From positions 900,001-932,000 of the forward strand of contig OZ252279.1 of the NCBI GenBank assembly GCA_965250005.1: 32,000 nucleotides of DNA. The letters run 5' to 3'. Positions 8,047 through 24,094 of this stretch are shown one piece after another (position 1 is the first letter of the stretch; each line of letters opens with the position of its first letter). Source of the stretch: Demequinaceae bacterium (GTDB taxonomy: Bacteria > Actinomycetota > Actinomycetes > Actinomycetales > Demequinaceae). The notes under the pieces are model-generated. The model was not told the origin of the DNA, searched no databases, and saw nothing but the letters and a program-made list of their open reading frames with translations. Made by a program: the position numbers and the translations under genes.

Positions 8047-8969
8047 CCCGCTTCATTGACGAGCACAAGGGTCGTTTCGGGGTTGAGCTCATCTGCCGGG
8101 TGTTACGCGTGGCGGTTCGTGGATTTGTCACCTCGCGCGGTTATCGCGCCGCTAAGACGCGTCCACCGTCCGTGCGTGCCCTGCGTGATGGTCTGCTTGT
8201 GTCCGAGGTGGTCCGGTTGCATGCAGAGAACTACGGCGTGTACGGGAGGCGGAAAATGCATGCGCTGCTGAAGCGGCAAGGCTGGCAGGTTGGGCGGGAC
8301 CAGACCGAGCGACTCATGCGCTTGGCAGGTGTTCGGGGTGTGAAACGCTCGAAGAAAGTGTTTACGACCAAGAGTGATCCTGCTGCCGCCAAGCCGCAGG
8401 ATCTTGTGCAACGCCGGTTCACTGCACCAGCACCGCGCCGTTTGTGGGTCGCGGACATCACCTACGTCGCGACCTGGTCCGGTTTCGCTTACGTCGCGTT
8501 CGTCACCGACGTCTACTCACGCAGGATCGTCGGATGGAACGTCGCATCGACCCTGCAGACTGACATCCTGCCTTTGCGGACGCTCGACATGGCCGCCTGG
8601 GACGCGGCAGGCGACCTCGCTGGCCTCGTCCATCATGCCGACCACGGCTCAAACTATTTGGCTACGGTCTACACCGACCGCGTCATCGAGCTCGGTGCGA
8701 AACCTTCCACCGGCTCGGTCGGCGACTCATATGACAATGCCCTCGCCGAGGCCATCAACGGCCTCTACAAAACAGAACTCATCCGCCAGCAAGGGCCCTG
8801 GCGCACCGTCGAACAAGTCGAGTTCGCGACCCTCGAATACGTGTGGTGGTGGAACAACAAACGACTCCACGGCGAACTCGACATGCACACCCCCGTCGAG
8901 ATCGAACAGGCGTACTACGCTGGCCAAGAATCAACCCAACCGGCATCCGCCGGACAGGGAAACACCTAG
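8043..8969 (+). CDS. IS3-family transposase OrfB (DDE integrase core, rve domain); probably made as an OrfAB fusion
   Basis: 308-aa ORF: FGVELICRVL, WVADITYV, HHADHGSNYLA, DNALAEAINGLYKTE, NNKRLHGEL. It is in the -1 frame relative to orfA, and that frame is open from 7986. Confidence 0.9.
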   Translation: MTRFIDEHKGRFGVELICRVLRVAVRGFVTSRGYRAAKTRPPSVRALRDGLLVSEVVRLHAENYGVYGRRKMHALLKRQGWQVGRDQTERLMRLAGVRGVKRSKKVFTTKSDPAAAKPQDLVQRRFTAPAPRRLWVADITYVATWSGFAYVAFVTDVYSRRIVGWNVASTLQTDILPLRTLDMAAWDAAGDLAGLVHHADHGSNYLATVYTDRVIELGAKPSTGSVGDSYDNALAEAINGLYKTELIRQQGPWRTVEQVEFATLEYVWWWNNKRLHGELDMHTPVEIEQAYYAGQESTQPASAGQGNT

Positions 8970-8996
8970 GAACTAAACCCAGGCCAAATCACTTGC
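8966..8996. repeat. Right terminal inverted repeat of the IS3-family element
   Basis: Reverse complement matches 7683-7713 at 27 of 31 positions. Overlaps the orfB stop codon (8967-8969). Confidence 0.75.
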
Positions 8997-9075
8997 TACA
9001 AAAAGCGAGCCAACGCCTGTTGCCTCCAGTTTTGGAAGTTCCGCATGGCCGCATGGCCGCAGCTACGCGGTGTTA

Positions 9076-9351
9076 TCAGTCGCCAGTGTCGAACGTCCGA
9101 GGCGGATCTTGGCGCAGCAGCAGGTACGCAGCTGCAACCGAATCCGCGAGAACTGGCGCCGCACCGGGATACTCAGCCTCGACAACCCGCATCACGGCTC
9201 CAGCCGACTCCGCCCCTCGAACAGCACTGGCAAGTCGGTTCGCTTCCGAATCGTACTCGTCCAGAGGTGCAGACACTGTGCGCCCCATGTCCGCCGGGTC
9301 AACCAGGTAAAGAAGGCGGCTTACCAAGCGCGCGAAATTGTCCATGGGCAA
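9076..9351 (-). CDS. Putative cognate immunity protein of the RHS C-terminal toxin
   Basis: Small ORF starting 13-19 nt after the RHS stop. GGGAGG (complement of 9356-9361) lies immediately after that stop. The start is TTG 9351 or ATG 9345 (MDNFARLVSRLLYLVDPADMGRTVSAPLDEYDSEANRLA...). The call rests on position and size. I did not recognise a family with certainty. Confidence 0.55.
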   Translation of the reverse strand: MPMDNFARLVSRLLYLVDPADMGRTVSAPLDEYDSEANRLASAVRGAESAGAVMRVVEAEYPGAAPVLADSVAAAYLLLRQDPPRTFDTGD

Positions 9352-9363
9352 ACTGCCTCCCTA

Positions 9364-12300
9364 TTAGGCATCATTAAGGATACTCAGAATCTTCGACTCG
9401 AACTCAGCTCTGGTCCAAACTGTCACGACCGCCCCCGATTGATCGAGTACGACAGCGGCCTGGTCTGTCAAGTAGAGGTACTTTCCGTTGGATTGCTGGA
9501 GGACCACGCGCGGCGAGCGCACCGTTTCAACGATCAGCGAAGGCGACGCGCCCCGTTCGATTGCGCGATTGAGAAAGTGAAATGGGTCCTTCGGGTTCGC
9601 GTGGGATATACCTGTGATGTTTAGGAACGGCGGCTGGACCACCTTGCTCGTTCCGTTCGCATACATCTGCCCTAGATTTCGCGGGGCGTAGAGCGCGGTC
9701 TTAGCAAGAGTGTCAACGATAACTCCGTCGGAGCCCGCGATGAACCGAGCGGCTGGCTGCGTGGTAACGGCACCGCCAGGCACCGCCGCCGCCGCAGGAC
9801 GCGCGACGCTAGCGACGCGTGCGGCTTCCGCTATGCGGGCGGCTTCGGCGACTCGCGAAACTTCGACAGTGCGAACAAGTTGGGCGGTTCGTGCTGTCGC
9901 AGCTGCGACCTCGACGCCTCGAGCAACCCTTGTGCCAGCAGCGGCCAGGCCTCCAGGGACGAAGAACAACCCAGCTAGCGCTACCCCCTCGCCGACGCCT
10001 TGACCACACTTATCAAACTGGCCATCCCGGCACGCATCCAGAGTCGGGCCGAACGTGTAGTCCCGGTAGACTTGATATCCGCTGTCCCAGTAATCGCCGA
10101 TGGACGCATCCCCGGAGAACACGTCCTCCAGAACGTCATTGTGTTCTATCGCCCTAAGTGCCAACCCCATCGCCAAGTCTCGCGCCTCGTCGCGTGCCTC
10201 CTGGGAACACGTCTGCATGCCGGACCACCCGCCGGCAATGCACTTCACATTCTCCACCAGCATTGGGTAGGGGGTGAGGCCTGCAAGTACCTTTCCAACA
10301 CCAATAGCCCCATTTCTCAGAAAGGTGACCGCGTTGTAGACAACCAGGCTCTCGTTCTCCACCCGAATGGCGAGCTGCTCTGCTTCCCACTTCAGATGAA
10401 TGTCTTGACGCTCCAACGCCTTCAGGTAATCTTCGTGAGCTTCCCGATAGGCCTTAGCCTCACGCTCGTAAACAGCTTGCTGGAAGTGAACACCACCCAC
10501 ACCGGTTGCCATTTGGCTCGCAATCGGCGCCAACACGGCTCTGACCGCTGGATCCAAGTTCGCGGTCAAGTTGTTGTAGATCTTCAACATGTCCGCGGCC
10601 GACGTGCCCTGCAAGTGGTTGACCGCAACACCGTAGAGGTTTCCAAGTGAACCCAACGCAGACTGCAACTGTGCATTCAACGCCGCCAACTGTTGTGCCC
10701 GCAGTGCGGCTGCTGCGCGAAAGAATCCGAGGATGTCGATATATGTTTCGGGGGCACCCTCAACATAGGTGTACCGGTTCAGGGACGATGCACGTGTGAC
10801 CGTGCCGCGGTAGCGGTCATCCTGGACCCACACCCGAGAACCAATGTCATAAGACCTCGACGCAAACTCGAGCAACCCTGCCGTATCGACTTGACCGGTG
10901 AACCCCGTCACCGTGTCTTGGGACGTGTCTGTCAGCAGGTCACCGAAGTCACCGTAGAGCGCAAGATCCGCAGAAATCACCCCATCAGAGGCGGTCGTCA
11001 CAGCCGATCCCAGCAGGTCCGCCAGCACATCCACCGTCTGGATCGAGGTCGTGGCGTTCTTGCCCTTGCCCGACGTCACCATCGTGGCCTCAAACAACAC
11101 CGCACCACCCGGGCCACGTGTGAGCTGCGTGTCGCCGTCACGGACCACTGAAAGCCCGTCATACAGGCGGGTGCGGTCCGTGCCGTCTTCAGACACCTCA
11201 AGAGCCCGGCCAATACCGTCACGGCCATAAGCCACGTCCGTGTCGCCACCGGCTACTGAACTGACCAGATCGCGACCATCATACGTATACGCCACATCGG
11301 AAACCGTGTGCGTCTTCTTACCCGACGTCGTGGTCGTCAACGCCTGCGTGCGGTTACCCCGTGCGTCATACGTGTACGCCGTGGTCTCCGTCTTGGACGC
11401 CGGCATCACGGCCGGGTCCATCGCAGATGACGTCAGTTGGTTGATCGCGTTCACAGAGCGGGTGACGGTGTAACCGTCGTTCTTCTTGTTGGTCGACAGG
11501 TCCTCAGAGACCGCCTCAAACACCATGTTCGAGGCCGCATCCCACCCATAGGACGCCACATAGTCACCAGTGACGGACTCCGTCAAACGACCCAGCTCAT
11601 CATGCGTGTAGTCCGTGAGCGTGGATGCCTCATCCGTGGACAGCTCCCGCTCGTCCACCAGGCCACGCGCGTCATACGCATACTCGAACGCCAACGTCCC
11701 AGTCGAACAACCCGCAGGCTGCTGATTCGGGTGACCATTACCGTTGTCCTTGCAATGCCCAAACGCATTCCCCGGAGCCATCGAAGACGGATTCACCTCA
11801 CCCGAAGGCAACTTATTACCCACAACACCCTCACCGGCGTGAACAATCGCCGTCACCCGACCCACCAGGTCGCGCGAAATCTCTGTCTCCACACCCGACG
11901 GGCGGAGGATACCGACCAAGGCACCAACCTCGTCGTAACCAAACGCGGCGACACCGTTCGCATCCGACTGCGACACCGCAAGGTTGCGCGCATCGTACGT
12001 GCGCAGCAGCGAGCGGCCATCGTCGTACGCCACCCGCGTCTGATTGCCTGCGAGGTCGTACTGGTTCGTGTTCTTCTGGCCAAGCGCGTCCACGGCGACC
12101 GTGACCCGTGAGGCCCAGTCGTACGTCCACGACGAGGTGCCGAGATCGTCGGTCATCGACGTGCGGTTGCCCAGCGCGTCAAAGCCGGATGTCACCGTCT
12201 GGTCCGGATACGCGACCTCAACCGCGTAGCCATCAGCCGAGAACGTGGTGGCCGTCACCGAACCGTCCGGTGCGGTCACCACGGACGGGCGGCCCAGGGC

Positions 12301-15300
12301 GTCGAAGTCGACGGTGCTGGTTTGACCGAGCGCGTCTGTTTCTGTCTCCACGCGGCCGAGCGCGTCGCGCACAAACGTCGTGGCGTTGCCGCGCGGGTCG
12401 ACTGTCGCGACTGCGTCGCCGCGGGCGTCGTAGCTCACCGAGGTCGTCACGTTGACGGACTCGCTGGACGGCTCGGCCGGCAAGAAGTTCTCGACTGTCT
12501 CGGTCAGGAGGTTGCGCACGTCATAGGTGAAGTGGGTAGCGATACCCGAGGGGTCTATCGCTTCGGTGATGTTGCCTGCCGTGTCGTACGCCTGCGTGCG
12601 GGTTTCGCCTTCGGCGTTGGTGGTTGACACGAGCCTGTTCATCACGTCATAGACGAACCCGGTGGTCCCACCGCGGGCGTCCGTCGTTGACAGGCGGTTG
12701 CCGCCCGCGTCGTAGGTTGCGGTCGTGGCGAAGCCTGCTGCGTCGAGGACGAGCGTCGGGCGACCAAGCGCGTCATATGTGACGGCGGTGGTGTTTCCTC
12801 GGGCGTCGGTCGTGGCGACTTCGCGTCCCAGGGCGTCGCGCGCGGTCTCAGTACGGCCGCCGTCAGGGAGCACCGTAGCAATCGCGCGGCCTGCGGCGTC
12901 GTATTCGGTGGCAAGGACATCGCCGAGCGCGTTGGTGATTGAGGTGGTGTTTCCGTTGGCGTCGTAGCCGTACTGGCTTGTGGCGCCTTCGGGAGTGGTC
13001 ATGGTGACCATACGCTGCATGGCGTCGTAGGTGTACGCGGTGGTGTCGCCTAGGGCGTTGGTGGATGTAATCATCTGTCCGAGCGCGTCGTAGGCGAAAG
13101 TGCTCTGGGAGCCGACGGCGTTGACCACGGCGACGGGGCGCGAGGCCGCATCGTATTGCGCTGTTGAACGGGCGCTGAGGGGGTCAACCGAAGCCGTGAC
13201 GTTGCCGCGCGAGTCGTACTCGGTGAGCCAGCGTTCACCCGCGGTATCAACGCTCGCGACCTGAAGGCCACGCGCGTCGTATTCGTAGGACATCGCGTTG
13301 CCGCGCTGATCGGTTGACGTCACCTTCAGGCCACCGGCGTCGTAGACGTTGCTGGCGGTGGTGCCATCCGCGAACGTCGATCCGACCGGACGCCCGAGCG
13401 AGTCGTACGTAAGGGACGTAGTCTGGCCGAGCGCGTTTGTGGTGGACGTGCGCGCACCGATTGCGTCGTAGGTGAACGTCGTGGCGCCAGCCAGCGCATC
13501 CGTCAGGCCGACTATGCGCGACAGTGCGTCATAGGTCGCCTCAGTCCGGTTCCCTAGTGGGTCCACCGTTGCGGTCGCGTTGCCTAGCGCATCAAATTCG
13601 GTGGCCCATGTGCCGCCAAGGGTGTCTGTGCGCGACACCATGCGGTCCAGCGGGTCAAGCAGGTAGGTCTCCGTGAAGCCGCGCTGGTTGGTAAACGAGG
13701 TCACGTTGCCGTTGGCGTCGTATCCGTACGCCACTGCGGCGGTGTCCGGGGTGGTGACCGTGACCATGCGCCCCATCACGTCAAATGCGTACTCGACCGT
13801 GTTGCCGAGCGCGTTCGTCGCAGACGTCATCTGCCCTGCAGCGTCGTATGTGAACGCGGTGCGTGCGCCCACCTGGTCGGTGGTCGCTACCCGGCGCGAG
13901 AGTGCGTCGTAGTCAAACTCGGTCCGCCCGCCGGCGGGGTCGATGTTCGCCACTAGGTTCCCGCGCGAGTCGTACTCGGACAGCCAGCGTTCGCCGGCCT
14001 CGTCCACCATCGCCGTTTGCATGCTGCGGGCGTCGTACTCGTAGGCGGTAGCGAATCCGCGCGTCCCCACCGTCCCGACCGCTAGACCGCGGGCGTTGTA
14101 CGTGGTGCTGGCCGTGGAGCCGTCCGGGTACGTGGTGCGGGTGAGGCGACCGAGCGCGTCGTACGCGTAGTTGACGGCGTTGCCGTTCTTGTTTGTCTCC
14201 GAGGTGGCGCGGCCTACCGCGTCGAACGTGAAGGTCGCGTGAGCGCCGAGCGCGTCAGTGGTCGCGACCAGGCGCGAAAGCGCATCGTATTCGATTTCCG
14301 TGCGGTTGCCGAGCGCGTCAACCGTCGCGGTCGTGTTGCCAAGCGCGTCGTATTCGGTGCGCCAAAGGTTGCCGAGCGCGTCGGTCATGGAAACCTCGCG
14401 ACCGAGCGCGTCCAGTTGATACGTCTGCGTGAAGCCGCGAGCGTTAGTGGCCGACACGAGCCGGCCGTTCGCGTCGTAACTGTAGAAGCGGGTCTCGCCG
14501 TCCGGCGTGGTCACCGACTCCAGTCGGCCCATCGCGTCGTAACTGTAACTCGACGTGCGGCCAAGCGCATCCGTTTGGCTCCCAGCGGCACCGCCGGGTA
14601 GGTACGTGACAGTGTCGGAATTGCCGAGTGCGTCGGTGAACGTCACCGGGCGCGACATGGCGTCGAACGCGGTCGCGTTGCGCGCGCCGCTTGGGTCGAT
14701 TGCTGCGACGGGGTTGCCAATCGCGTCGTATTCCGTGAGCCACCGCTCGCCTGCCTCGTCCACCATGACGGTGGCGCGGCCCAGGCCGTCGTACTCCCAC
14801 GTGCGGCTCGTGCCGTCCGGGTTGGTCTGCGCGACCATGCGGTGCTCCGCGTCGTACGCGTACTCCATGCGTGAGCCGTCGGCGCGGTTCGCTGCGGTGA
14901 GCTGGAGGTTGACGTTGTATTCGTAGGTTGCTGTTTCGCCAGCCTCGTTAGTTTCACTCACGAGCGAGTCGTTGACGTCATAAACAAACGTGGCGACGCC
15001 GCCGAGGGCGTCGAGGGTGCTGATCAGGTTATCGGCAGCGTCGTACGCAAGAGTGGTCAGGGCGCCCTTCGCGTCGGTGACCGACGTGAGGCGGTTCGCC
15101 AGGTCGTACGTACGTGCCGTGACGTGGCCCAGCGCATCCGTAGAGGTGACAGAGTTTCCCCGCCAGTCGTAGGCCATAGTGGTCACGCCGCCGGTCGCAT
15201 CCGTGATGCTTGTCATATCGCCGTGCGCGTCGAAGGACGCATACGTGACGGTGCCGTCGGGCAAGTGAGTCTCGGTGGCGCGGCCGTCCTCGTTGAGGAC

Positions 15301-17658
15301 GAAGCTGGTGGTAGCGGTGCCGCCGTTCGGGTCAGGGCTGCTGATGGACACCAGGTCGCCCCGGCTGTTGTAGCCGTACGTGGTGGTCTCGCCCACGGCG
15401 TTGGTGGACGACGTCACCCGGCCATACACATCAAACTCCGACGTGTAGACATTTCCATTGGCATCCGTCGAGGTGTTCGGGTTGTAGAACTCGTCGTAAC
15501 CGTTAAGCGTCACACCGCCCTCGGCGTCGAGGGCCCGGACCACCTGGTTCTTGTCGTTGTGCGTCAGCGTGCTCGCGTTGCCGAGGGCATCGGTGAGCGT
15601 TGTTTCACGGTTAGGGCCGTAGGCGATAGTGCGAACATAGCCCGCACCATCAGTCTGGATGACCACGCGCTCCTCGGTATCGAACACGTTGGTTAGCTCG
15701 GCCACGCCGTCGGCGCCCGTGACAACCTCAAGCAGACCGCCCGCGTTATACGCGAAAGACCGAGTCCGGCCTGCTCCATCCATGATCGACGTGAGATTAC
15801 CCGCAGCATCATAGGCGAGCATCCACTGACGGCCATCCGGATGCGTGAAGCCTGTGATGCGACCCTCGGGGGTGGACTGGACCGCGACCATCTGGCCAGC
15901 CTGGTCCGTGATGCTCAAGAGCGGCGGGAACGTGTACTCGCCTTCCGCGGCCTCGGCGAGCGGTCCATAAACCAGCGTGTAGGCGTTGCCTTGGCGGTCC
16001 ACCGCGCGGGCCAGCGTTCCGTACCCGGACTCCTCGTCGAACGTGAACTCCAGCGACGTATTGTCGGCAAAGGTCAGCACAGCTCCGCCCTCGACCGCGG
16101 CCAAAGTGCTGCGCGCGCCGGGAGGCGTCACGAACCCGCCGGCGCCGTCGGACTCAAAGAACACGCTGCGACCGTCCGCGAGGATCGCCATGACAGCGCC
16201 GTTGTCATACAACTGCGCCCGGGACGAATACCCGAAGTTCCAACCGTTGCCAACCGGTGAAACGCGCCCATCAAGCGCGTTGTAGGCGAGGGTCAGGTCG
16301 ATGGCCTGGTCGCCGACGCCGGAGAGGGTGAACACCTCTTCTGAGGCAAGGAAGTTACCTGTCGCGAGGTTGACGGGGTCCGTGCCATAAATCTGGTAGT
16401 TGTTTTCGCCCAGCTGAGCGAGATCGTCGAGCACGTCTTGCGTGGGCGGCGTCGGCAGTGTCACGGGCTCGGCGCAGGCGATCCCGCCCGTTGCTTCGAT
16501 TTGCTGAATGATGCTGGAGTACACAGCGTCGGTCACCAAATCAAGCCGCGTGCTGATAATCGGCCAGTCGTAGTTGTGGCTGAGGAACAGGAGTTCTGCG
16601 TGTGCGTACGCCGGGGCCGACCCGACGAGCTGGCTGTAAGGCAACACCGAACTTGGAGGGTTGAGCCCGCGGCGGTCGGGGCGCCCCGTCCAGTTCACAA
16701 TCTGAGTCTTGGTGTTGTTACCCAGCCGGGTGCTCGCGCTGTTGCTCGCAGACCACGCGACCACTCCGCCGTCCCTGCTGATACCCCACGGGCGGGCGAT
16801 GCCATCCGACGCGGTGTTGTAGTTATTGAATGCGAGGGTCATCGCGATATCCGCGTCGAAGTTCCGGATGCGGTTTGAGCGAGTAGTCCGCGCAACAAAT
16901 GCCGTCGAGGAATTACGGGTGATGAGGACTTCTGCCAAGCATTCGTTCTCGAGCCTGGCCTTGACGGCGGTTGCGACAGCGTGGCTGAACTGAAGCTCGT
17001 TGTACACGTGCCCATTCCACAGGGCCCTGCCAAGCGCATCATCTGGGTCCAACGCGATGCGCGGGATGGTCGGGTCCGGCACGGCTGCGGCTGGTGCCGC
17101 CATAACAATGAACTCACTCAAATGATCCGACTGCGCAACCACGGCACCCAGTTCCGGGTCGTAGGCCGAGGGGACCCACGTCCACTCGTCATCTTCCGAC
17201 TCGCGGGAGTAGACACCGAGGGAGGCCACATCGACCTCCGACAACTGCTCTTCAGAGATGGGGAAGGTCAACTCGATGGCAGGAACAAACTCAGAGACAT
17301 AGGCCGGAGTGTCCTCGGTCTCCTCGACAACAGTCACCTGGTGCTCGAACTCCGTGACGTCCCCGCCCACAGCATCCGTCGCAACAATCGACACGCCGTC
17401 AGTCAGAGACACGACCGCACCATCGGCGGTCTCGGCAGTCGCGCCCTCCACCTCGATGGGCTCCGCCTCGACGGTCGCACCGTCCGTGGCCTGGTCAACC
17501 ACATTGAAATCCACCTCGCCACCCTCAGGCAAAGCGATGCTGGTGGACTCACCCTCGACCAGCAGTGAGTCATCCGTGGCATAGACCGGAGTGACGACGC
17601 CAGCGACTAGCGCGGCGGTCAGAGTGGTAGTCAGGGCAAAGCGAACGGCGGTGGACAT
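9364..17658 (-). CDS. Secreted YD-repeat / RHS-family polymorphic toxin (about 2764 aa)
   Basis: The track ORF is 9364..17697 with a TTG start. I prefer ATG 17658, which has GAGGGGA 5 nt upstream. That gives a Sec signal, MSTAVRFALTTTLTAALVAGVVTPVYA/TDD. Downstream are a DUF6531-type DPVNLATGNF motif, dozens of YD repeats (xYxYDxxGxL/R), and the RHS core end motif NRYTYVEGAPETYIDILGF (PxxxxDxxGx). About 450 aa of variable C-terminus follow. Confidence 0.92.
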   Translation of the reverse strand: MSTAVRFALTTTLTAALVAGVVTPVYATDDSLLVEGESTSIALPEGGEVDFNVVDQATDGATVEAEPIEVEGATAETADGAVVSLTDGVSIVATDAVGGDVTEFEHQVTVVEETEDTPAYVSEFVPAIELTFPISEEQLSEVDVASLGVYSRESEDDEWTWVPSAYDPELGAVVAQSDHLSEFIVMAAPAAAVPDPTIPRIALDPDDALGRALWNGHVYNELQFSHAVATAVKARLENECLAEVLITRNSSTAFVARTTRSNRIRNFDADIAMTLAFNNYNTASDGIARPWGISRDGGVVAWSASNSASTRLGNNTKTQIVNWTGRPDRRGLNPPSSVLPYSQLVGSAPAYAHAELLFLSHNYDWPIISTRLDLVTDAVYSSIIQQIEATGGIACAEPVTLPTPPTQDVLDDLAQLGENNYQIYGTDPVNLATGNFLASEEVFTLSGVGDQAIDLTLAYNALDGRVSPVGNGWNFGYSSRAQLYDNGAVMAILADGRSVFFESDGAGGFVTPPGARSTLAAVEGGAVLTFADNTSLEFTFDEESGYGTLARAVDRQGNAYTLVYGPLAEAAEGEYTFPPLLSITDQAGQMVAVQSTPEGRITGFTHPDGRQWMLAYDAAGNLTSIMDGAGRTRSFAYNAGGLLEVVTGADGVAELTNVFDTEERVVIQTDGAGYVRTIAYGPNRETTLTDALGNASTLTHNDKNQVVRALDAEGGVTLNGYDEFYNPNTSTDANGNVYTSEFDVYGRVTSSTNAVGETTTYGYNSRGDLVSISSPDPNGGTATTSFVLNEDGRATETHLPDGTVTYASFDAHGDMTSITDATGGVTTMAYDWRGNSVTSTDALGHVTARTYDLANRLTSVTDAKGALTTLAYDAADNLISTLDALGGVATFVYDVNDSLVSETNEAGETATYEYNVNLQLTAANRADGSRMEYAYDAEHRMVAQTNPDGTSRTWEYDGLGRATVMVDEAGERWLTEYDAIGNPVAAIDPSGARNATAFDAMSRPVTFTDALGNSDTVTYLPGGAAGSQTDALGRTSSYSYDAMGRLESVTTPDGETRFYSYDANGRLVSATNARGFTQTYQLDALGREVSMTDALGNLWRTEYDALGNTTATVDALGNRTEIEYDALSRLVATTDALGAHATFTFDAVGRATSETNKNGNAVNYAYDALGRLTRTTYPDGSTASTTYNARGLAVGTVGTRGFATAYEYDARSMQTAMVDEAGERWLSEYDSRGNLVANIDPAGGRTEFDYDALSRRVATTDQVGARTAFTYDAAGQMTSATNALGNTVEYAFDVMGRMVTVTTPDTAAVAYGYDANGNVTSFTNQRGFTETYLLDPLDRMVSRTDTLGGTWATEFDALGNATATVDPLGNRTEATYDALSRIVGLTDALAGATTFTYDAIGARTSTTNALGQTTSLTYDSLGRPVGSTFADGTTASNVYDAGGLKVTSTDQRGNAMSYEYDARGLQVASVDTAGERWLTEYDSRGNVTASVDPLSARSTAQYDAASRPVAVVNAVGSQSTFAYDALGQMITSTNALGDTTAYTYDAMQRMVTMTTPEGATSQYGYDANGNTTSITNALGDVLATEYDAAGRAIATVLPDGGRTETARDALGREVATTDARGNTTAVTYDALGRPTLVLDAAGFATTATYDAGGNRLSTTDARGGTTGFVYDVMNRLVSTTNAEGETRTQAYDTAGNITEAIDPSGIATHFTYDVRNLLTETVENFLPAEPSSESVNVTTSVSYDARGDAVATVDPRGNATTFVRDALGRVETETDALGQTSTVDFDALGRPSVVTAPDGSVTATTFSADGYAVEVAYPDQTVTSGFDALGNRTSMTDDLGTSSWTYDWASRVTVAVDALGQKNTNQYDLAGNQTRVAYDDGRSLLRTYDARNLAVSQSDANGVAAFGYDEVGALVGILRPSGVETEISRDLVGRVTAIVHAGEGVVGNKLPSGEVNPSSMAPGNAFGHCKDNGNGHPNQQPAGCSTGTLAFEYAYDARGLVDERELSTDEASTLTDYTHDELGRLTESVTGDYVASYGWDAASNMVFEAVSEDLSTNKKNDGYTVTRSVNAINQLTSSAMDPAVMPASKTETTAYTYDARGNRTQALTTTTSGKKTHTVSDVAYTYDGRDLVSSVAGGDTDVAYGRDGIGRALEVSEDGTDRTRLYDGLSVVRDGDTQLTRGPGGAVLFEATMVTSGKGKNATTSIQTVDVLADLLGSAVTTASDGVISADLALYGDFGDLLTDTSQDTVTGFTGQVDTAGLLEFASRSYDIGSRVWVQDDRYRGTVTRASSLNRYTYVEGAPETYIDILGFFRAAAALRAQQLAALNAQLQSALGSLGNLYGVAVNHLQGTSAADMLKIYNNLTANLDPAVRAVLAPIASQMATGVGGVHFQQAVYEREAKAYREAHEDYLKALERQDIHLKWEAEQLAIRVENESLVVYNAVTFLRNGAIGVGKVLAGLTPYPMLVENVKCIAGGWSGMQTCSQEARDEARDLAMGLALRAIEHNDVLEDVFSGDASIGDYWDSGYQVYRDYTFGPTLDACRDGQFDKCGQGVGEGVALAGLFFVPGGLAAAGTRVARGVEVAAATARTAQLVRTVEVSRVAEAARIAEAARVASVARPAAAAVPGGAVTTQPAARFIAGSDGVIVDTLAKTALYAPRNLGQMYANGTSKVVQPPFLNITGISHANPKDPFHFLNRAIERGASPSLIVETVRSPRVVLQQSNGKYLYLTDQAAVVLDQSGAVVTVWTRAEFESKILSILNDA
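9367..10722 (-). other. Variable C-terminal (toxin) region of the RHS protein, downstream of the DILGF core boundary
   Basis: IDILGF is encoded by the complement of 10723-10740. About 452 aa follow, comprising a helical segment, a Cys-containing segment with a Gly-rich hydrophobic stretch, an Ala-rich linker and a terminal domain of about 135 aa (complement of about 9367-9770). That terminal domain contains FHFLNRAIERGAS...VVTVW. Confidence 0.7.
12930..14765 (-). repeat. Tandem super-repeat of about 756 bp (252 aa), about 2.4 copies, inside the YD-repeat region
   Basis: Units start at DEAGERWL(T/S)EYD: complement of about 14760, 14005 and 13245. The protein units are colinear (EAGERWLTEYDAIGNPVAAIDPSGAR... 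/ EAGERWLSEYDSRGNLVANIDPAGGR... / AGERWLTEYDSRGNVTASVDPLSAR...). At the DNA level, an identical 18-mer CGCGCGAGTCGTACTCGG occurs at copies 2 and 3. Confidence 0.7.
16492..17064 (-). other. Amidase_3 (MurNAc-L-Ala amidase)-like domain with substituted metal ligands, inside the RHS N-terminal region
   Basis: Track-ORF residues about 212-402. IALDPDDALG stands where amidase_3 has DPGHGG. NELQFSHAVA retains the Glu. ADIAMTLAFNN stands where the family has ADLFxSIHANA. AHAELLFLSHNYD retains the Glu of the E.GF.SN motif. This is recognition from memory, not an HMM hit. Confidence 0.4.
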
Positions 17659-17908
17659 AATTCCCCTCAGGAACTGTCGGTTTCCGAGAAACAACAATAG
17701 CGTTCGGTTGAGACTATGACAGAGGTGACGCGAATTGTCTCAGCGAAAATCTGCGGGCCGATCAAATACTCGGTCCAGTTTGACACCATTCGTGACGTAA
17801 CACCCCAACAATATCGGCTCCGAAACTCTCCAACGCGTGACCAAAATCACAATGAAATGCCGCGATTATCAGGCACCTGTGGATTAAAGGGGATAAGTGC
17901 GGCGGCGG

Positions 17909-20089
<2,181 letters not shown>

Positions 20090-20103
20090 TCAAAGGACTC
20101 CGC

Positions 20104-20304
20104 ATGGAAGACCTCAACCTTGCCGCCCTTGCCCCCGTTGCACTGCTCGGACTGGGCTTCGTTGTGTACTGCCTCATCGACGTGTACCGCAGTGAGGTTC
20201 GCGGGCTGCCCAAGTGGGCGTGGGCAATCATCTGCGTCATCTCGGTCCCGCTCGGCGGGATCGTCTACCTCATCGCTGGCAGGGACTCCGGACGCTCCAA
20301 GTGA
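20104..20304 (+). CDS. PLDc_N (cardiolipin-synthase N-terminal) domain small membrane protein
   Basis: 66 aa with two hydrophobic helices and the LPKWAWAIICVISVPLGGIVYLIAGR signature. The stop overlaps the GTG start of the ABC ATPase (GTGA). Confidence 0.75.
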   Translation: MEDLNLAALAPVALLGLGFVVYCLIDVYRSEVRGLPKWAWAIICVISVPLGGIVYLIAGRDSGRSK

Positions 20305-21173
20305 TCTCCGCGCGCGGGCTCACCAAGCAGTACGGCCGCACCGTCGCGCTCGATGACGTTGACCTCGACGTGCGTGCGGGATCCGTTTACGGGCTTGCGG
20401 GGCCCAACGGCGCAGGCAAGACCACACTGCTTGGCATCCTCGCGGGCCTACGCGACGCATCGTCGGGCACACTCAGCGTTGACGCCAAGCCCGGCGAGAT
20501 CGCGGTGCTGTCCGACACCCCACGCTTCGACCAGTGGCTCACGGGACGCGAGGTTGTCGCGCTCGCGCAGGCCCTCACGGGCCCGGTGGACGACGCGCGC
20601 GTGGACCAGATCCTCAAACTGGCTGGCCTCGCTGAGGCTAGTTCCCGGCGCAACGGCGGCTACTCGCGAGGGATGCTGCAGCGCCTGGGAATCGCCGCGA
20701 CCCTCGTGGGGCGCCCCAAGCTCATCCTGCTGGACGAGCCGGCCTCCGCCCTTGACCCCCAGGGCCGACGAGAAGTGCTGGATCTCATCGCGCAGTTGCG
20801 CGGAACCGCGACGGTGATGTTCTCGAGTCACATCCTCGGCGATGTCCAGGAGGTATCAGACACTGTCGGAATCCTGAATCACGGCAAGCTGCTCTTCCAG
20901 GGCCCGCTGTCAGACCTGCTCGTGGGAGAGGCCGTTCCCCGCTACATCGTCAAGCTTCGCGAGAACGCCGACGCGGTCGCCACCAAACTCGCGGCGGCCA
21001 GCTGGGTGACCGCGGCAGAGGCGTCCGCTGGCGCCGTCGCCGTCGAAGTGGCTTCGCTCGCCGACGCCGAATCGAAGCTACCGAAGGCGCTCGCCGCTGC
21101 CGGTGCGCAGGTGATCTCGCTGGGCCCTGAAGAGGTCTCGCTGGAGCGCGCGTTTCTGGAGCTGACCCGATGA
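20301..21173 (+). CDS. ABC transporter ATP-binding protein (ABC-2 exporter type)
   Basis: Track ORF 20214..21173. I place the start at GTG 20301 (VISARGLTKQYG...), which overlaps the preceding stop. Walker A GPNGAGKTT, signature YSRGMLQRLGIA, Walker B LILLDEP. Confidence 0.9.
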   Translation: MISARGLTKQYGRTVALDDVDLDVRAGSVYGLAGPNGAGKTTLLGILAGLRDASSGTLSVDAKPGEIAVLSDTPRFDQWLTGREVVALAQALTGPVDDARVDQILKLAGLAEASSRRNGGYSRGMLQRLGIAATLVGRPKLILLDEPASALDPQGRREVLDLIAQLRGTATVMFSSHILGDVQEVSDTVGILNHGKLLFQGPLSDLLVGEAVPRYIVKLRENADAVATKLAAASWVTAAEASAGAVAVEVASLADAESKLPKALAAAGAQVISLGPEEVSLERAFLELTR

Positions 21174-21925
21174 CACTGTGGAAACTAGAGGTTTTGCGCC
21201 TGACGCGCACCAAGCGGTGGATCGCGCTACTCGGGACCTTCGTGGCCTTCGGGCTCGTCGGGCCGGTGACGGCGCGATACATCCAAGAGATCCTCTCCGG
21301 CGTGGGCGGCGACCTGGAGGGCGCCACCATCACGCTGCCCGATCCCGTGGCGCAGGATGGGCTTGCGCAGTACATCTCGAACGCGGCCCAGGTGGGCGTC
21401 TTGGTCGCCGTGGTGATCGCGGCCGGGGCTTTGGCGTTCGACGCGGTACCGGAAATGGGCGTCTTCCTGCGCACCCGAGTCACCAACACGTGGCGCATCT
21501 TGATCCCGCGCCTAGTCGTGTCATTTGTGGCGATCGCCGTCGCCTTCACGGCGGGCACGCTGGCCGCTTGGTACGAAACCTGGGCGCTCATCGGCCCGCT
21601 GCCCGCAGGCCCCGTGCTGCTGGCCACCGCGTACAGCATCGTGTTCTTGGCGTTTATGGTTGCGGTTGTCGCCGCGGTCGCTCAGTGGGTGCGAACCGTC
21701 CTGGCGACCGTGATGTGGTCGCTCGTGATCCTCATCGTGATGCCGTTGTTCGGCATCTCAGGCGCTATTGCCCAGTGGCTTCCCAGCACCCTGCTCGGAG
21801 CGCTGGGGCATTTGGACGGCGTCGAAGCGGGCGGCGAGTACCCGCAGATTGTTGTCGTCACGGTTGCCCAAACGGTAGCGCTGGTGTGGCTGGCGAAACG
21901 CGGGGCTGACCGCCGCGAGGCGTGA
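21170..21925 (+). CDS. ABC-2 type transporter permease
   Basis: 251-aa polytopic hydrophobic ORF. Its ATG overlaps the ATPase stop (ATGA). Confidence 0.75.
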   Translation: MTLWKLEVLRLTRTKRWIALLGTFVAFGLVGPVTARYIQEILSGVGGDLEGATITLPDPVAQDGLAQYISNAAQVGVLVAVVIAAGALAFDAVPEMGVFLRTRVTNTWRILIPRLVVSFVAIAVAFTAGTLAAWYETWALIGPLPAGPVLLATAYSIVFLAFMVAVVAAVAQWVRTVLATVMWSLVILIVMPLFGISGAIAQWLPSTLLGALGHLDGVEAGGEYPQIVVVTVAQTVALVWLAKRGADRREA

Positions 21926-23643: not shown

Positions 23644-23675
23644 GGCCGGGTGTCCCCTGCGGGTGGCGCCCGGCC
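23644..23675 (+). terminator. GC-rich hairpin downstream of the SRPBCC gene (possible I-shaped intrinsic terminator)
   Basis: GGCCGGGTGTCCCC-TGC-GGG(T)GGCGCCCGGCC. About 14 bp of stem including G-U pairs and one bulged T, with a 3-nt loop, 28 nt after the stop. There is no U-tract. Confidence 0.35.
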
Positions 23676-23734
23676 ACTGTCGTTCCCAGCCGCGGTCGTC
23701 CCCGGGGACGTAGCCTCGATACCAGTACCCACCG

Positions 23735-24094
23735 ATGAAAGGCACCGCCATGGCCGAAGCGCCTCCGTCCGTCACCGTGATTGGCCACAGCGGCGAGGAG
23801 ATTATCGCGGCCCACGCCGTGATCGAGGGCCGCGTTGCGCGCACGCCCATCCTGAAGGCGGCGGGCGCTCGCGTTATTCACCTGGCGTTCGCCGCCGGCT
23901 CGGAGCTCACGGAGCATTCGGCGCCCGTGCCGATCATCGTTCGGTCGCTCGCCGGAGAGTTCGCGTTCGAGGTCGCAGGCGAAAGCTTCACGCTGACTCG
24001 CGGAGGTATGGCGCACATCGCCGCGAACGTGCCGCACGCAGTTTCGGCACCCGCCGAGGCCCGGCTGCTGATCACGCTGCTCGATGGCAGCTAG
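23735..24094 (+). CDS. Cupin-domain protein
   Basis: 119-aa ORF with a cupin_2-like core ([54 protein letters not shown]). Its stop TAG and the mnmA stop share the palindrome CTAG at 24091-24094. An alternative start is ATG 23750. Confidence 0.7.

Follow-up and report, generated by a model that had tools for sequence, protein, structure and literature searches.

What does the largest gene in a 32,000-nucleotide stretch of a Demequinaceae bacterium chromosome (contig OZ252279.1, positions 900,001 to 932,000; the whole stretch is referred to as the window) encode, and by what route would its product act on another cell? The gene is a single uninterrupted open reading frame (ORF; 9364..17697, minus strand) that occupies 26% of the window in the ORF listing, in agreement with a preliminary description of one giant gene filling about a quarter of it. 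We consider it probable, at roughly 80%, that the locus encodes a WapA-like RHS polymorphic toxin exported by Sec and its immunity protein, in a high-GC actinobacterium, and it belongs to an already known class, the Sec-dependent (WapA-like) RHS polymorphic toxins. Hidden Markov models (HMMs) back every element on which the preliminary description had based a WapA-like architecture, and the strings that it quoted, MSTAVRFALTTTLTAALVAGVVTPVYA/TDD, DPVNLATGNF and PETYIDILG, were all found, at residues 1-30, 427 and 2303, respectively.

Translation probably begins at the ATG at 17658, 4 bases 3' of GAGGGG, which gives a protein of 2764 residues and a gene at 9364-17658 on the minus strand. Signal peptide, acidic beta-rich domain, Amidase_3-like domain, DUF6531, YD/RHS shell, Rhs core and a 453-residue tail follow one another in that order, and a small gene lies immediately downstream:

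17578..17658, minus strand: Sec (signal peptidase I) signal peptide, residues 1-27, with cleavage after VYA (VYA/T), read from the sequence
17074..17577, minus strand: acidic beta-rich N-terminal domain, possibly ZU5/GPS-like, residues 28-195, from a structural model
16384..17073, minus strand: degenerate Amidase_3-like domain, residues 196-425, from Pfam scores of orthologues and Foldseek
16156..16380, minus strand: DUF6531, an RHS N-terminal plug-type domain, residues 427-501 (Pfam PF20148, E 1.2e-12)
10957..16155, minus strand: YD/RHS repeat shell, residues 502-2234, about 1730 residues, from Pfam, NCBIfam and PDB matches
10726..10956, minus strand: Rhs-associated core, residues 2235-2311, ending in PETYIDILG, from NCBIfam
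9814..10725, minus strand: conserved pre-toxin module, residues 2312-2615, about 300 residues, from comparison with the homologues P0001 and P0002
9691..9813, minus strand: Ala-rich low-complexity linker, residues 2616-2656, read from the sequence
9364..9690, minus strand: C-terminal toxin domain with a colicin-D/DUF4258 (Ntox49)-like BECR fold, predicted RNase, residues 2657-2764 plus the stop codon, about 108 residues
9076..9345, minus strand: cognate immunity gene, 89 residues from an ATG with the ribosome-binding site GGGAGG upstream, within ORF 9076..9351

The shell and core place the protein among RHS toxins. Pfam RHS_repeat (PF05593) matches in 26 stretches (E 1.2e-192), NCBIfam YD_repeat_2x (TIGR01643) matches at E 3e-162, and the core is recognized by NCBIfam Rhs_assc_core (TIGR03696) with 40.4 bits versus a cutoff of 32.5 (E 3e-10). 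The long YD-repeat shell and RHS core end motif of the preliminary description are thus borne out by strong matches, and the motif DPVNLATGNF, there called DUF6531 type, opens the Pfam DUF6531 match. Against the PDB, the shell matched solved Rhs cocoons with E values of 6e-49 to 1e-31, and teneurin matches were also present. Within the shell, a super-repeat of 252 residues (12 YD units) occurs in about 3.6 tandem copies (residues ~780-1700, 12559-15321) and makes the shell about 40% longer than the solved Rhs cocoons. Because its copies, compared at an offset of 252 residues, are only 39 to 54% identical in amino acid sequence (49 to 61% in DNA, with AGERWL recurring at residues 969, 1221 and 1473), the super-repeat is an old internal amplification. 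The core motif YIDILGF, as read from the sequence, has the Asp, has Ile in place of the Pro of canonical DPxGL, and is accompanied by an upstream Asp pair (WVQDD). A predicted autoproteolytic release site is placed at the end of the core, PETYIDILG.

The N terminus points to export by Sec. By eye, the signal peptide has R6 in the n-region, a hydrophobic core of about 19 residues and an AxA-type cleavage site, and homologues keep AHA, AQA, ASA or ADA at the alignment position of VYA. Neither a lipobox Cys nor a twin-Arg motif was read in the N-terminal signal, and Pfam and NCBIfam searches with the RHS protein gave no match to PAAR, VgrG, WXG, LXG or SpvB. The preliminary description, which had proposed a classical Sec signal rather than an N terminus of the type VI or type VII secretion systems (T6SS, T7SS), agrees with the n-, h- and c-regions, the conserved AxA site and the missing PAAR, VgrG, WXG and LXG matches. 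A search with residues 1-425 returned six fragmentary homologues at 45 to 70% identity with the parts in the same order, and a genome scan added L006, from an uncultured Actinomycetota metagenome-assembled genome (MAG), and L007, from a Demequina sp. MAG. The nearest relatives of the locus are MAGs of Demequina and of an uncultured Actinomycetota.

Downstream of the core, the protein is modular. The preliminary description had seen about 450 residues of unrelated sequence; the length holds (453 residues), but the tail comprises three layers, namely, a conserved pre-toxin module, an Ala-rich linker and the 108-residue toxin domain. Residues 2312-2615 are common to P0001 and P0002 at 44 to 53% identity, whereas the terminal domains of these proteins differ, and comparable Ala-rich linkers occur in both. 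The module is made up of a helical region, a domain in which C-x10-C and C-x7-C pairs are invariant, and a stretch of hydrophobic character, FFVPGG. L006 and L004 share the N terminus and shell with the window protein at 47 to 64% identity, and both lie in genomic surroundings other than those of the window gene. In L006, the first ~80 residues after the core are shared and are followed by another tail; in L004, which lies in a different genomic context, residues 1-2315 are shared at 47 to 61% identity and the tail is not. Comparison of relatives gave a C terminus that varies among homologues, with other tails in L004, L006 and P0001/P0002, and a downstream gene that covaries with the toxin domain, as expected of the cassette exchange that the preliminary description had envisaged. 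Separately, L006 (CAWGJW010000004.1) has, behind its different tail, an 81-residue, Cys-rich, zinc-ribbon-like putative immunity gene (17924-18169) and, ~1.7 kb further, an orphan fragment (19610-20125) 58% identical to residues 2223-2394 of the window protein, i.e., the core and the start of the pre-toxin module. This orphan core-CT fragment is likely a recombination substrate for tail switching.

The terminal 108 residues belong to a widespread family. As isolated segments, the N-terminal, amidase-like, pre-toxin, toxin and immunity regions had no Pfam or NCBIfam match even at E values of ≤10, and phmmer or profile searches of PDB sequences with these segments or their alignments returned chance-level matches only. 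In a word-indexed homologue search, the full 453-residue tail found two matches and a 132-residue toxin segment none. Exhaustive phmmer searching over cluster representatives recovered at least 300 sequences at E ≤ 1e-3 and 72 at E ≤ 1e-10, and a metagenome scan for the family was run with a 7-sequence toxin alignment. In nearly all representatives the match ends 0 to 11 residues from the C terminus. Among the carriers are long RHS proteins, a filamentous-haemagglutinin (CdiA/FHA)/PT-VENN protein, PT-HINT proteins and also small proteins, each of which has a signal peptide of its own.

An AlphaFold2 model of the toxin domain built from a 48-sequence alignment reached a predicted local distance difference test score (pLDDT) of 96. 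It consists of a beta-hairpin, two helices (38-46 and 50-58), four antiparallel strands (62-66, 71-74, 78-82 and 87-93) and a further helix, and it shows the N-terminal helices, four-stranded antiparallel sheet and conserved His plus Lys/Arg that characterize the BECR fold. Among viral models (BFVD), Foldseek retrieved a phage protein annotated “Colicin D” (E 3e-3, probability 1.0, template-modelling score [TM] 0.61) and, from Microbacterium phage Honk, a DUF4258 protein (probability 0.99). The top of a weak PDB Foldseek list was enriched for BECR RNases, namely, colicin E5, colicin D, CdiA-CT of NC101 and O32:H37, and RelE. DUF4258 (PF14076) was matched below threshold by 22 of the 48 family members at E ≤ 1 (best 8.7e-5), compared with three or fewer of the 48 for any other Pfam family. 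Within the motif FHxLNRxIERG, R46 is invariant across the 48 sequences; most of them also have H38, which the 7-sequence subset A6 keeps without exception. In the window protein, where the motif reads FHFLNRAIERG, the two residues are R2702 and H2694. This His and Arg agree with the signature “H, [KR]” given for Ntox49 (PMC3482391), and Ntox49 is treated as equivalent to DUF4258, within the colicin-like BECR branch, in a preprint of 2026 (bioRxiv 10.64898/2026.08.28.747851); the target of DUF4258 is given as unknown (PMC11980606). Because of the BECR-like model, the DUF4258 matches and the conserved His and Arg, the domain is rather likely to be an RNase.

The 89-residue downstream gene is the cognate immunity gene, as its homologues follow the toxin family directly 3' in five other independent loci. 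The homologues, which share the motif LYxxDPxxxGxxxxAPxDEY, lie behind small secreted toxins (L002/L012/L013 and L010/L011), behind a toxin-family member on a short contig (L009) and behind two different RHS proteins (L015 and L016; HMM E values of 2e-24 and 1e-30). The small downstream ORF already pointed out in the preliminary description (9076..9351, minus strand) therefore belongs to one of six loci, including the window, in which the immunity family accompanies the toxin family. Pairing on such different carriers indicates that the toxin domain and immunity gene travel as a cassette. The immunity protein itself had no Pfam or PDB match; a resemblance to DUF1871, suggested by the DPxxxG...APxDEY motif, found no support in Pfam and was dropped.

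Two observations concern the surroundings of such cassettes. In the window, the spacer between the immunity gene and the neighboring insertion sequence (IS) holds a short tandem duplication, CATGGCCG-CATGGCCG (9045-9063, 13 to 31 bp 3' of the immunity stop codon). In L002 (JGI 3300025864 contig Ga0209429_10004385, 1814-4365), an array of small genes encoding ~190 to 240 residues lies downstream of an RHS tail and immunity gene; the observation also takes in P0014, P0026 and P0036. The array proteins have their own signal peptides, a shared N-terminal segment (..AYDG..H..Q.H....LSV..RLSVAANS) and different C-terminal toxins, with a small gene after each. These genes look like stand-alone secreted mini polymorphic toxins, not classical promoterless orphan CTs.

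The region between the signal peptide and DUF6531 contains two further domains. For residues 196-425, the amidase-like module of the preliminary description, homology to Amidase_3 stood through the orthologues and the fold, but the zinc histidines have been lost. P0004 and P0005 score 28.9 and 31.5 bits, respectively, against PF01520 (cutoff 27, profile positions 19-172), and the best Foldseek match of a low-confidence model was AmiC (4bin, E 1e-3), followed by CwlV and AmiB. Aligned to Escherichia coli AmiC, H196 (DPGHGG) corresponds to Asp or a gap (DPDD/DPDN) and H265 (SIHAD) to Ala (TLAFN); the Glu matching E211 is retained, and an equivalent of E373 (AELLFL) is tentative. Of the His-Glu-His zinc triad, only the Glu is thus kept, and the replacements of the ligand histidines are invariant in all homologues, in a domain with 86% mean column identity among orthologues. 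We conclude that residues 196-425 adopt a degenerate Amidase_3 fold that lacks the His-Glu-His zinc site. Since neither of the catalytic-zinc histidines is present, the domain most likely binds peptidoglycan rather than cutting it and is probably not an enzyme. No pairing of Amidase_3 with RHS repeats was found in the literature searched.

Residues 28-195, described in the preliminary account as an acidic region, are indeed acidic but appear to form a folded, beta-rich domain, possibly ZU5-like. The pLDDT of this part is 60 to 84, and Foldseek matched the model to ankyrin ZU5A-ZU5B with a probability of 0.99 and a TM of only ~0.22. The motif SDHLSEF (H179-L180-S181 at 17116-17124) is invariant in 7 to 9 homologues and lies between the last two modelled strands; the whole block around HLS is also invariant. 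ZU5/GPS domains self-cleave at H-(F/L)/(S/T) between the last strands. On the model and motif, a ZU5-type assignment is put forward tentatively, at somewhat less than even odds.

Arranged along the protein, these parts suggest a route from producer to target. The precursor would be exported by Sec, because it has a classical signal peptidase I signal and no T6SS or T7SS adaptor. Outside the membrane, the amidase-like domain would bind peptidoglycan, as the wall-binding repeats of Bacillus subtilis WapA do, and the beta-rich N-terminal domain may be a ZU5/GPS module that self-cleaves at H-L/S, a step that is weakly supported. DUF6531 and the ~1730 residues of YD repeats form an enlarged cocoon closed by the Rhs core. 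The aspartyl autoprotease of the core would be expected to cleave behind PETYIDILG, releasing the 453-residue tail within the shell. In this tail, the Cys-paired module is a candidate delivery or translocation adaptor, because it is reused with different toxins; it is followed by the linker and by the 108-residue domain that would carry the killing activity, most likely that of an RNase in the target cytoplasm. In the producer and its siblings, the 89-residue protein would presumably block the toxin by binding to it. It is conceivable, if doubtful, that the ZU5-like self-cleaving domain, the dead Amidase_3 domain and the Cys-paired module together constitute an undescribed actinobacterial delivery system, with peptidoglycan docking on producer or target, HL/S autoproteolysis for arming or release and the pre-toxin module as a reusable translocation domain for interchangeable toxins at the cytoplasmic membrane of the target, like the cytoplasm-entry domains of CdiA-CT.

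Experiments have established WapA-type toxins in Firmicutes, where Koskiniemi and colleagues reportedly described them in 2013, and WapA uses cell-wall-binding repeats. In function, WapA is the nearest analogue of the window protein. With B. subtilis WapA and the WapA-type proteins of Streptococcus suis (PMC12704120), the window protein shares a signal peptide, a wall-associated N terminus, a YD/RHS shell, an Rhs core, a polymorphic nuclease-type C terminus and an adjacent immunity gene, and both WapA and the window protein exceed 2300 residues. Unlike WapA, the window protein has a degenerate Amidase_3-like domain and no Pfam match to wall-binding repeats; WapA has neither the ZU5-like N-terminal domain nor the ~300-residue pre-toxin module, and the toxin and immunity families differ. 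The host here is a high-GC actinobacterium. Sec-dependent RHS toxins, including some with an N-terminal ZU5 domain and some from Actinobacteria, were catalogued in 2012 (Zhang et al., PMC3482391, Table 1 and Figure 2B), and the window protein has the signal peptide, N-terminal beta domain, central RHS repeats and variable C-terminal toxin of that Sec/type II secretion class, which among catalogued architectures comes nearest to it. What ties it to ZU5 is a Foldseek match obtained with a mediocre model, together with the HLS motif, and the ZU5 domains of Zhang et al. mostly accompany SpvB/beta-propeller (TcdB/TcaC) proteins, which are absent from the window.

The toxin domain resembles DUF4258 (PF14076)/Ntox49 in its helix-helix and four antiparallel strands, its conserved His and Arg and its use as a C-terminal polymorphic toxin. 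It differs in that the window toxin and most of its relatives fall under the Pfam gathering score, in an additional N-terminal beta-hairpin and C-terminal helix, and in an immunity protein that is not Imm22. Rhs effectors of the T6SS (PDB 7q97 and 8h8a, Tse15 8uxt and Tse5 8cp6) have a homologous YD shell, a DUF6531-type plug and a core autoprotease enclosing the toxin; in contrast to them, the window protein has no PAAR- or VgrG-binding N terminus, is predicted from its signal peptide to be exported by Sec and has a shell made ~40% longer by the super-repeat. The pseudo-amidase, the Cys-paired pre-toxin module and the unnamed toxin and immunity subfamilies are variations within a well-known modular scheme. 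If the proposed function is correct, the locus would be a clean, intact Sec-dependent RHS toxin in high-GC Gram-positive bacteria, a group without a tested system of this kind. The dead-amidase domain may then explain wall anchoring or targeting, the reused pre-toxin module would be a candidate entry domain, and the toxin and immunity gene would form a compact pair from a widespread sister family of DUF4258/Ntox49 that has no name yet. The overall understanding of polymorphic toxins stays as it was; the locus adds a member and a few testable details.

The chromosomal setting bears on the history of the locus. The gene ligA (17909-20017) lies directly upstream of the RHS gene, as the preliminary description had it, and 80 bp 3' of the immunity gene is an insertion sequence recognized by its inverted repeats and ORFs:

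7683..8996, plus strand: intact IS3-family insertion sequence

Its inverted repeats (28 nt, 7683-7710 and 8969-8996) are 93% complementary, and orfA (7726-8046, HTH_Tnp_1) and orfB (8043-8969, rve, rve_2 and rve_3) overlap by 4 nt; no target-site duplication was recognized around the element. The “IS debris” of the preliminary description is therefore an apparently intact element with both ORFs and 28-nt repeats. Beyond ligA and the IS, the window ORFs encode ordinary metabolic and housekeeping functions. In relatives, the RHS gene is found at other chromosomal sites, which supports the accessory status that had been proposed for the locus as an island. GC content at third codon positions (GC3) is 0.80 in the shell (10957-16155) versus 0.63 to 0.69 from the core through the immunity gene, compared with 0.83 to 0.89 in ligA, mnmA and etfA. 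The breakpoint lies at or just before the Rhs core (9364-10956 versus 10957-16155), and this fall fits later acquisition of the 3' cassette.

Other explanations of the locus differ in target, in the seat of toxicity, in the role of the amidase-like domain or in whether it functions at all. RHS shells also occur in Tc toxins and in teneurins, which were among the PDB results, and a very large shell with an N-terminal surface-type domain could suit a surface protein that is directed at a host (insecticidal, TcC-like) or serves adhesion (teneurin-like), with an incidental downstream ORF. Pfam searches of the window proteins, however, found no SpvB/TcB, TcA or beta-propeller partner, and the C-terminal domain family is carried by antibacterial CdiA/FHA and PT-HINT proteins. 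The conserved small gene is, moreover, tightly coupled downstream in six loci, a hallmark of self-protection against an antibacterial toxin, and a host-directed role is accordingly very improbable. The coupling also bears on the suggestion that the true toxic activity resides in the ~300-residue Cys-paired module, which might, for instance, act on membranes or form pores, and that the last 108 residues are accessory and not a nuclease. The module is conserved, has a Gly-rich hydrophobic stretch, FFVPGGLAAAG, and gave no match to a known fold, and some Rhs toxins, e.g., Tse5, are pore formers (PMC10684867). The module is nevertheless combined with at least three unrelated terminal domains, whereas the immunity family tracks the 108-residue domain even where the carrier, a small secreted protein or another RHS protein, has no such module. 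The specificity-determining toxin therefore lies in the last 108 residues, and toxicity of the module itself is improbable.

A working peptidoglycan hydrolase with a noncanonical metal site, breaching the wall of target or producer so that the cocoon reaches the membrane, would accord with the Amidase_3 homology, with the retained E211-equivalent and tentative catalytic Glu, with an Asp near the first His position and with the high conservation of the domain. Both His ligands are absent in all homologues, however, the second ligand position is taken by Ala, which cannot coordinate a metal, and the window copy fails Pfam entirely, which makes catalysis unlikely. That the locus is a relic, decaying or silent, no longer deployed and separated by the IS3 insertion from its orphan cassettes, might be suspected from the element 80 bp after the immunity gene and from the lack of a sigma-70-like promoter upstream in a simple scan, which was not designed for actinobacterial promoters. 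Such decay is hard to reconcile with an uninterrupted 8.3-kb ORF that has a good ribosome-binding site and all conserved motifs intact, and we give it little credence.

The probability assigned to a Sec-exported toxin-immunity pair reflects several points that weigh against it. For this locus, export, cleavage, toxicity and neutralization are all inferred, and the passage of a 47-kDa tail through a Gram-positive wall and membrane is unexplained. The DILG of the core departs from canonical DPxGL. The window copy of the toxin reached no Pfam threshold and did not match PF14076, and its PDB Foldseek search gave no significant match (all E values of >0.3, TM 0.3 to 0.4). In L014 and L017, which carry distant, low-GC members of the toxin family, other small genes lie downstream. 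The pre-toxin module is defined by three sequences only, and the window copy of the Amidase_3-like domain has no Pfam match. ZU5 received no support from Pfam or from the profile search against the PDB. The N-terminal model, built from a 5-sequence alignment, has an overall pLDDT of only 53 (30 to 50 in the amidase part), so that the ZU5 and amidase fold calls are soft.

Elsewhere in the window, three ORFs had no Pfam match at E ≤ 0.001: 30204-31886 (minus strand, 560 residues), 21170-21925 (plus strand, 251 residues) and 23650-24192 (plus strand, 180 residues). The 251-residue ORF lies behind an ABC ATPase and may encode its permease. At the left edge, 365-2269 (plus strand) encodes a PAS-GGDEF-EAL protein of cyclic di-GMP turnover that is unrelated to the toxin locus.

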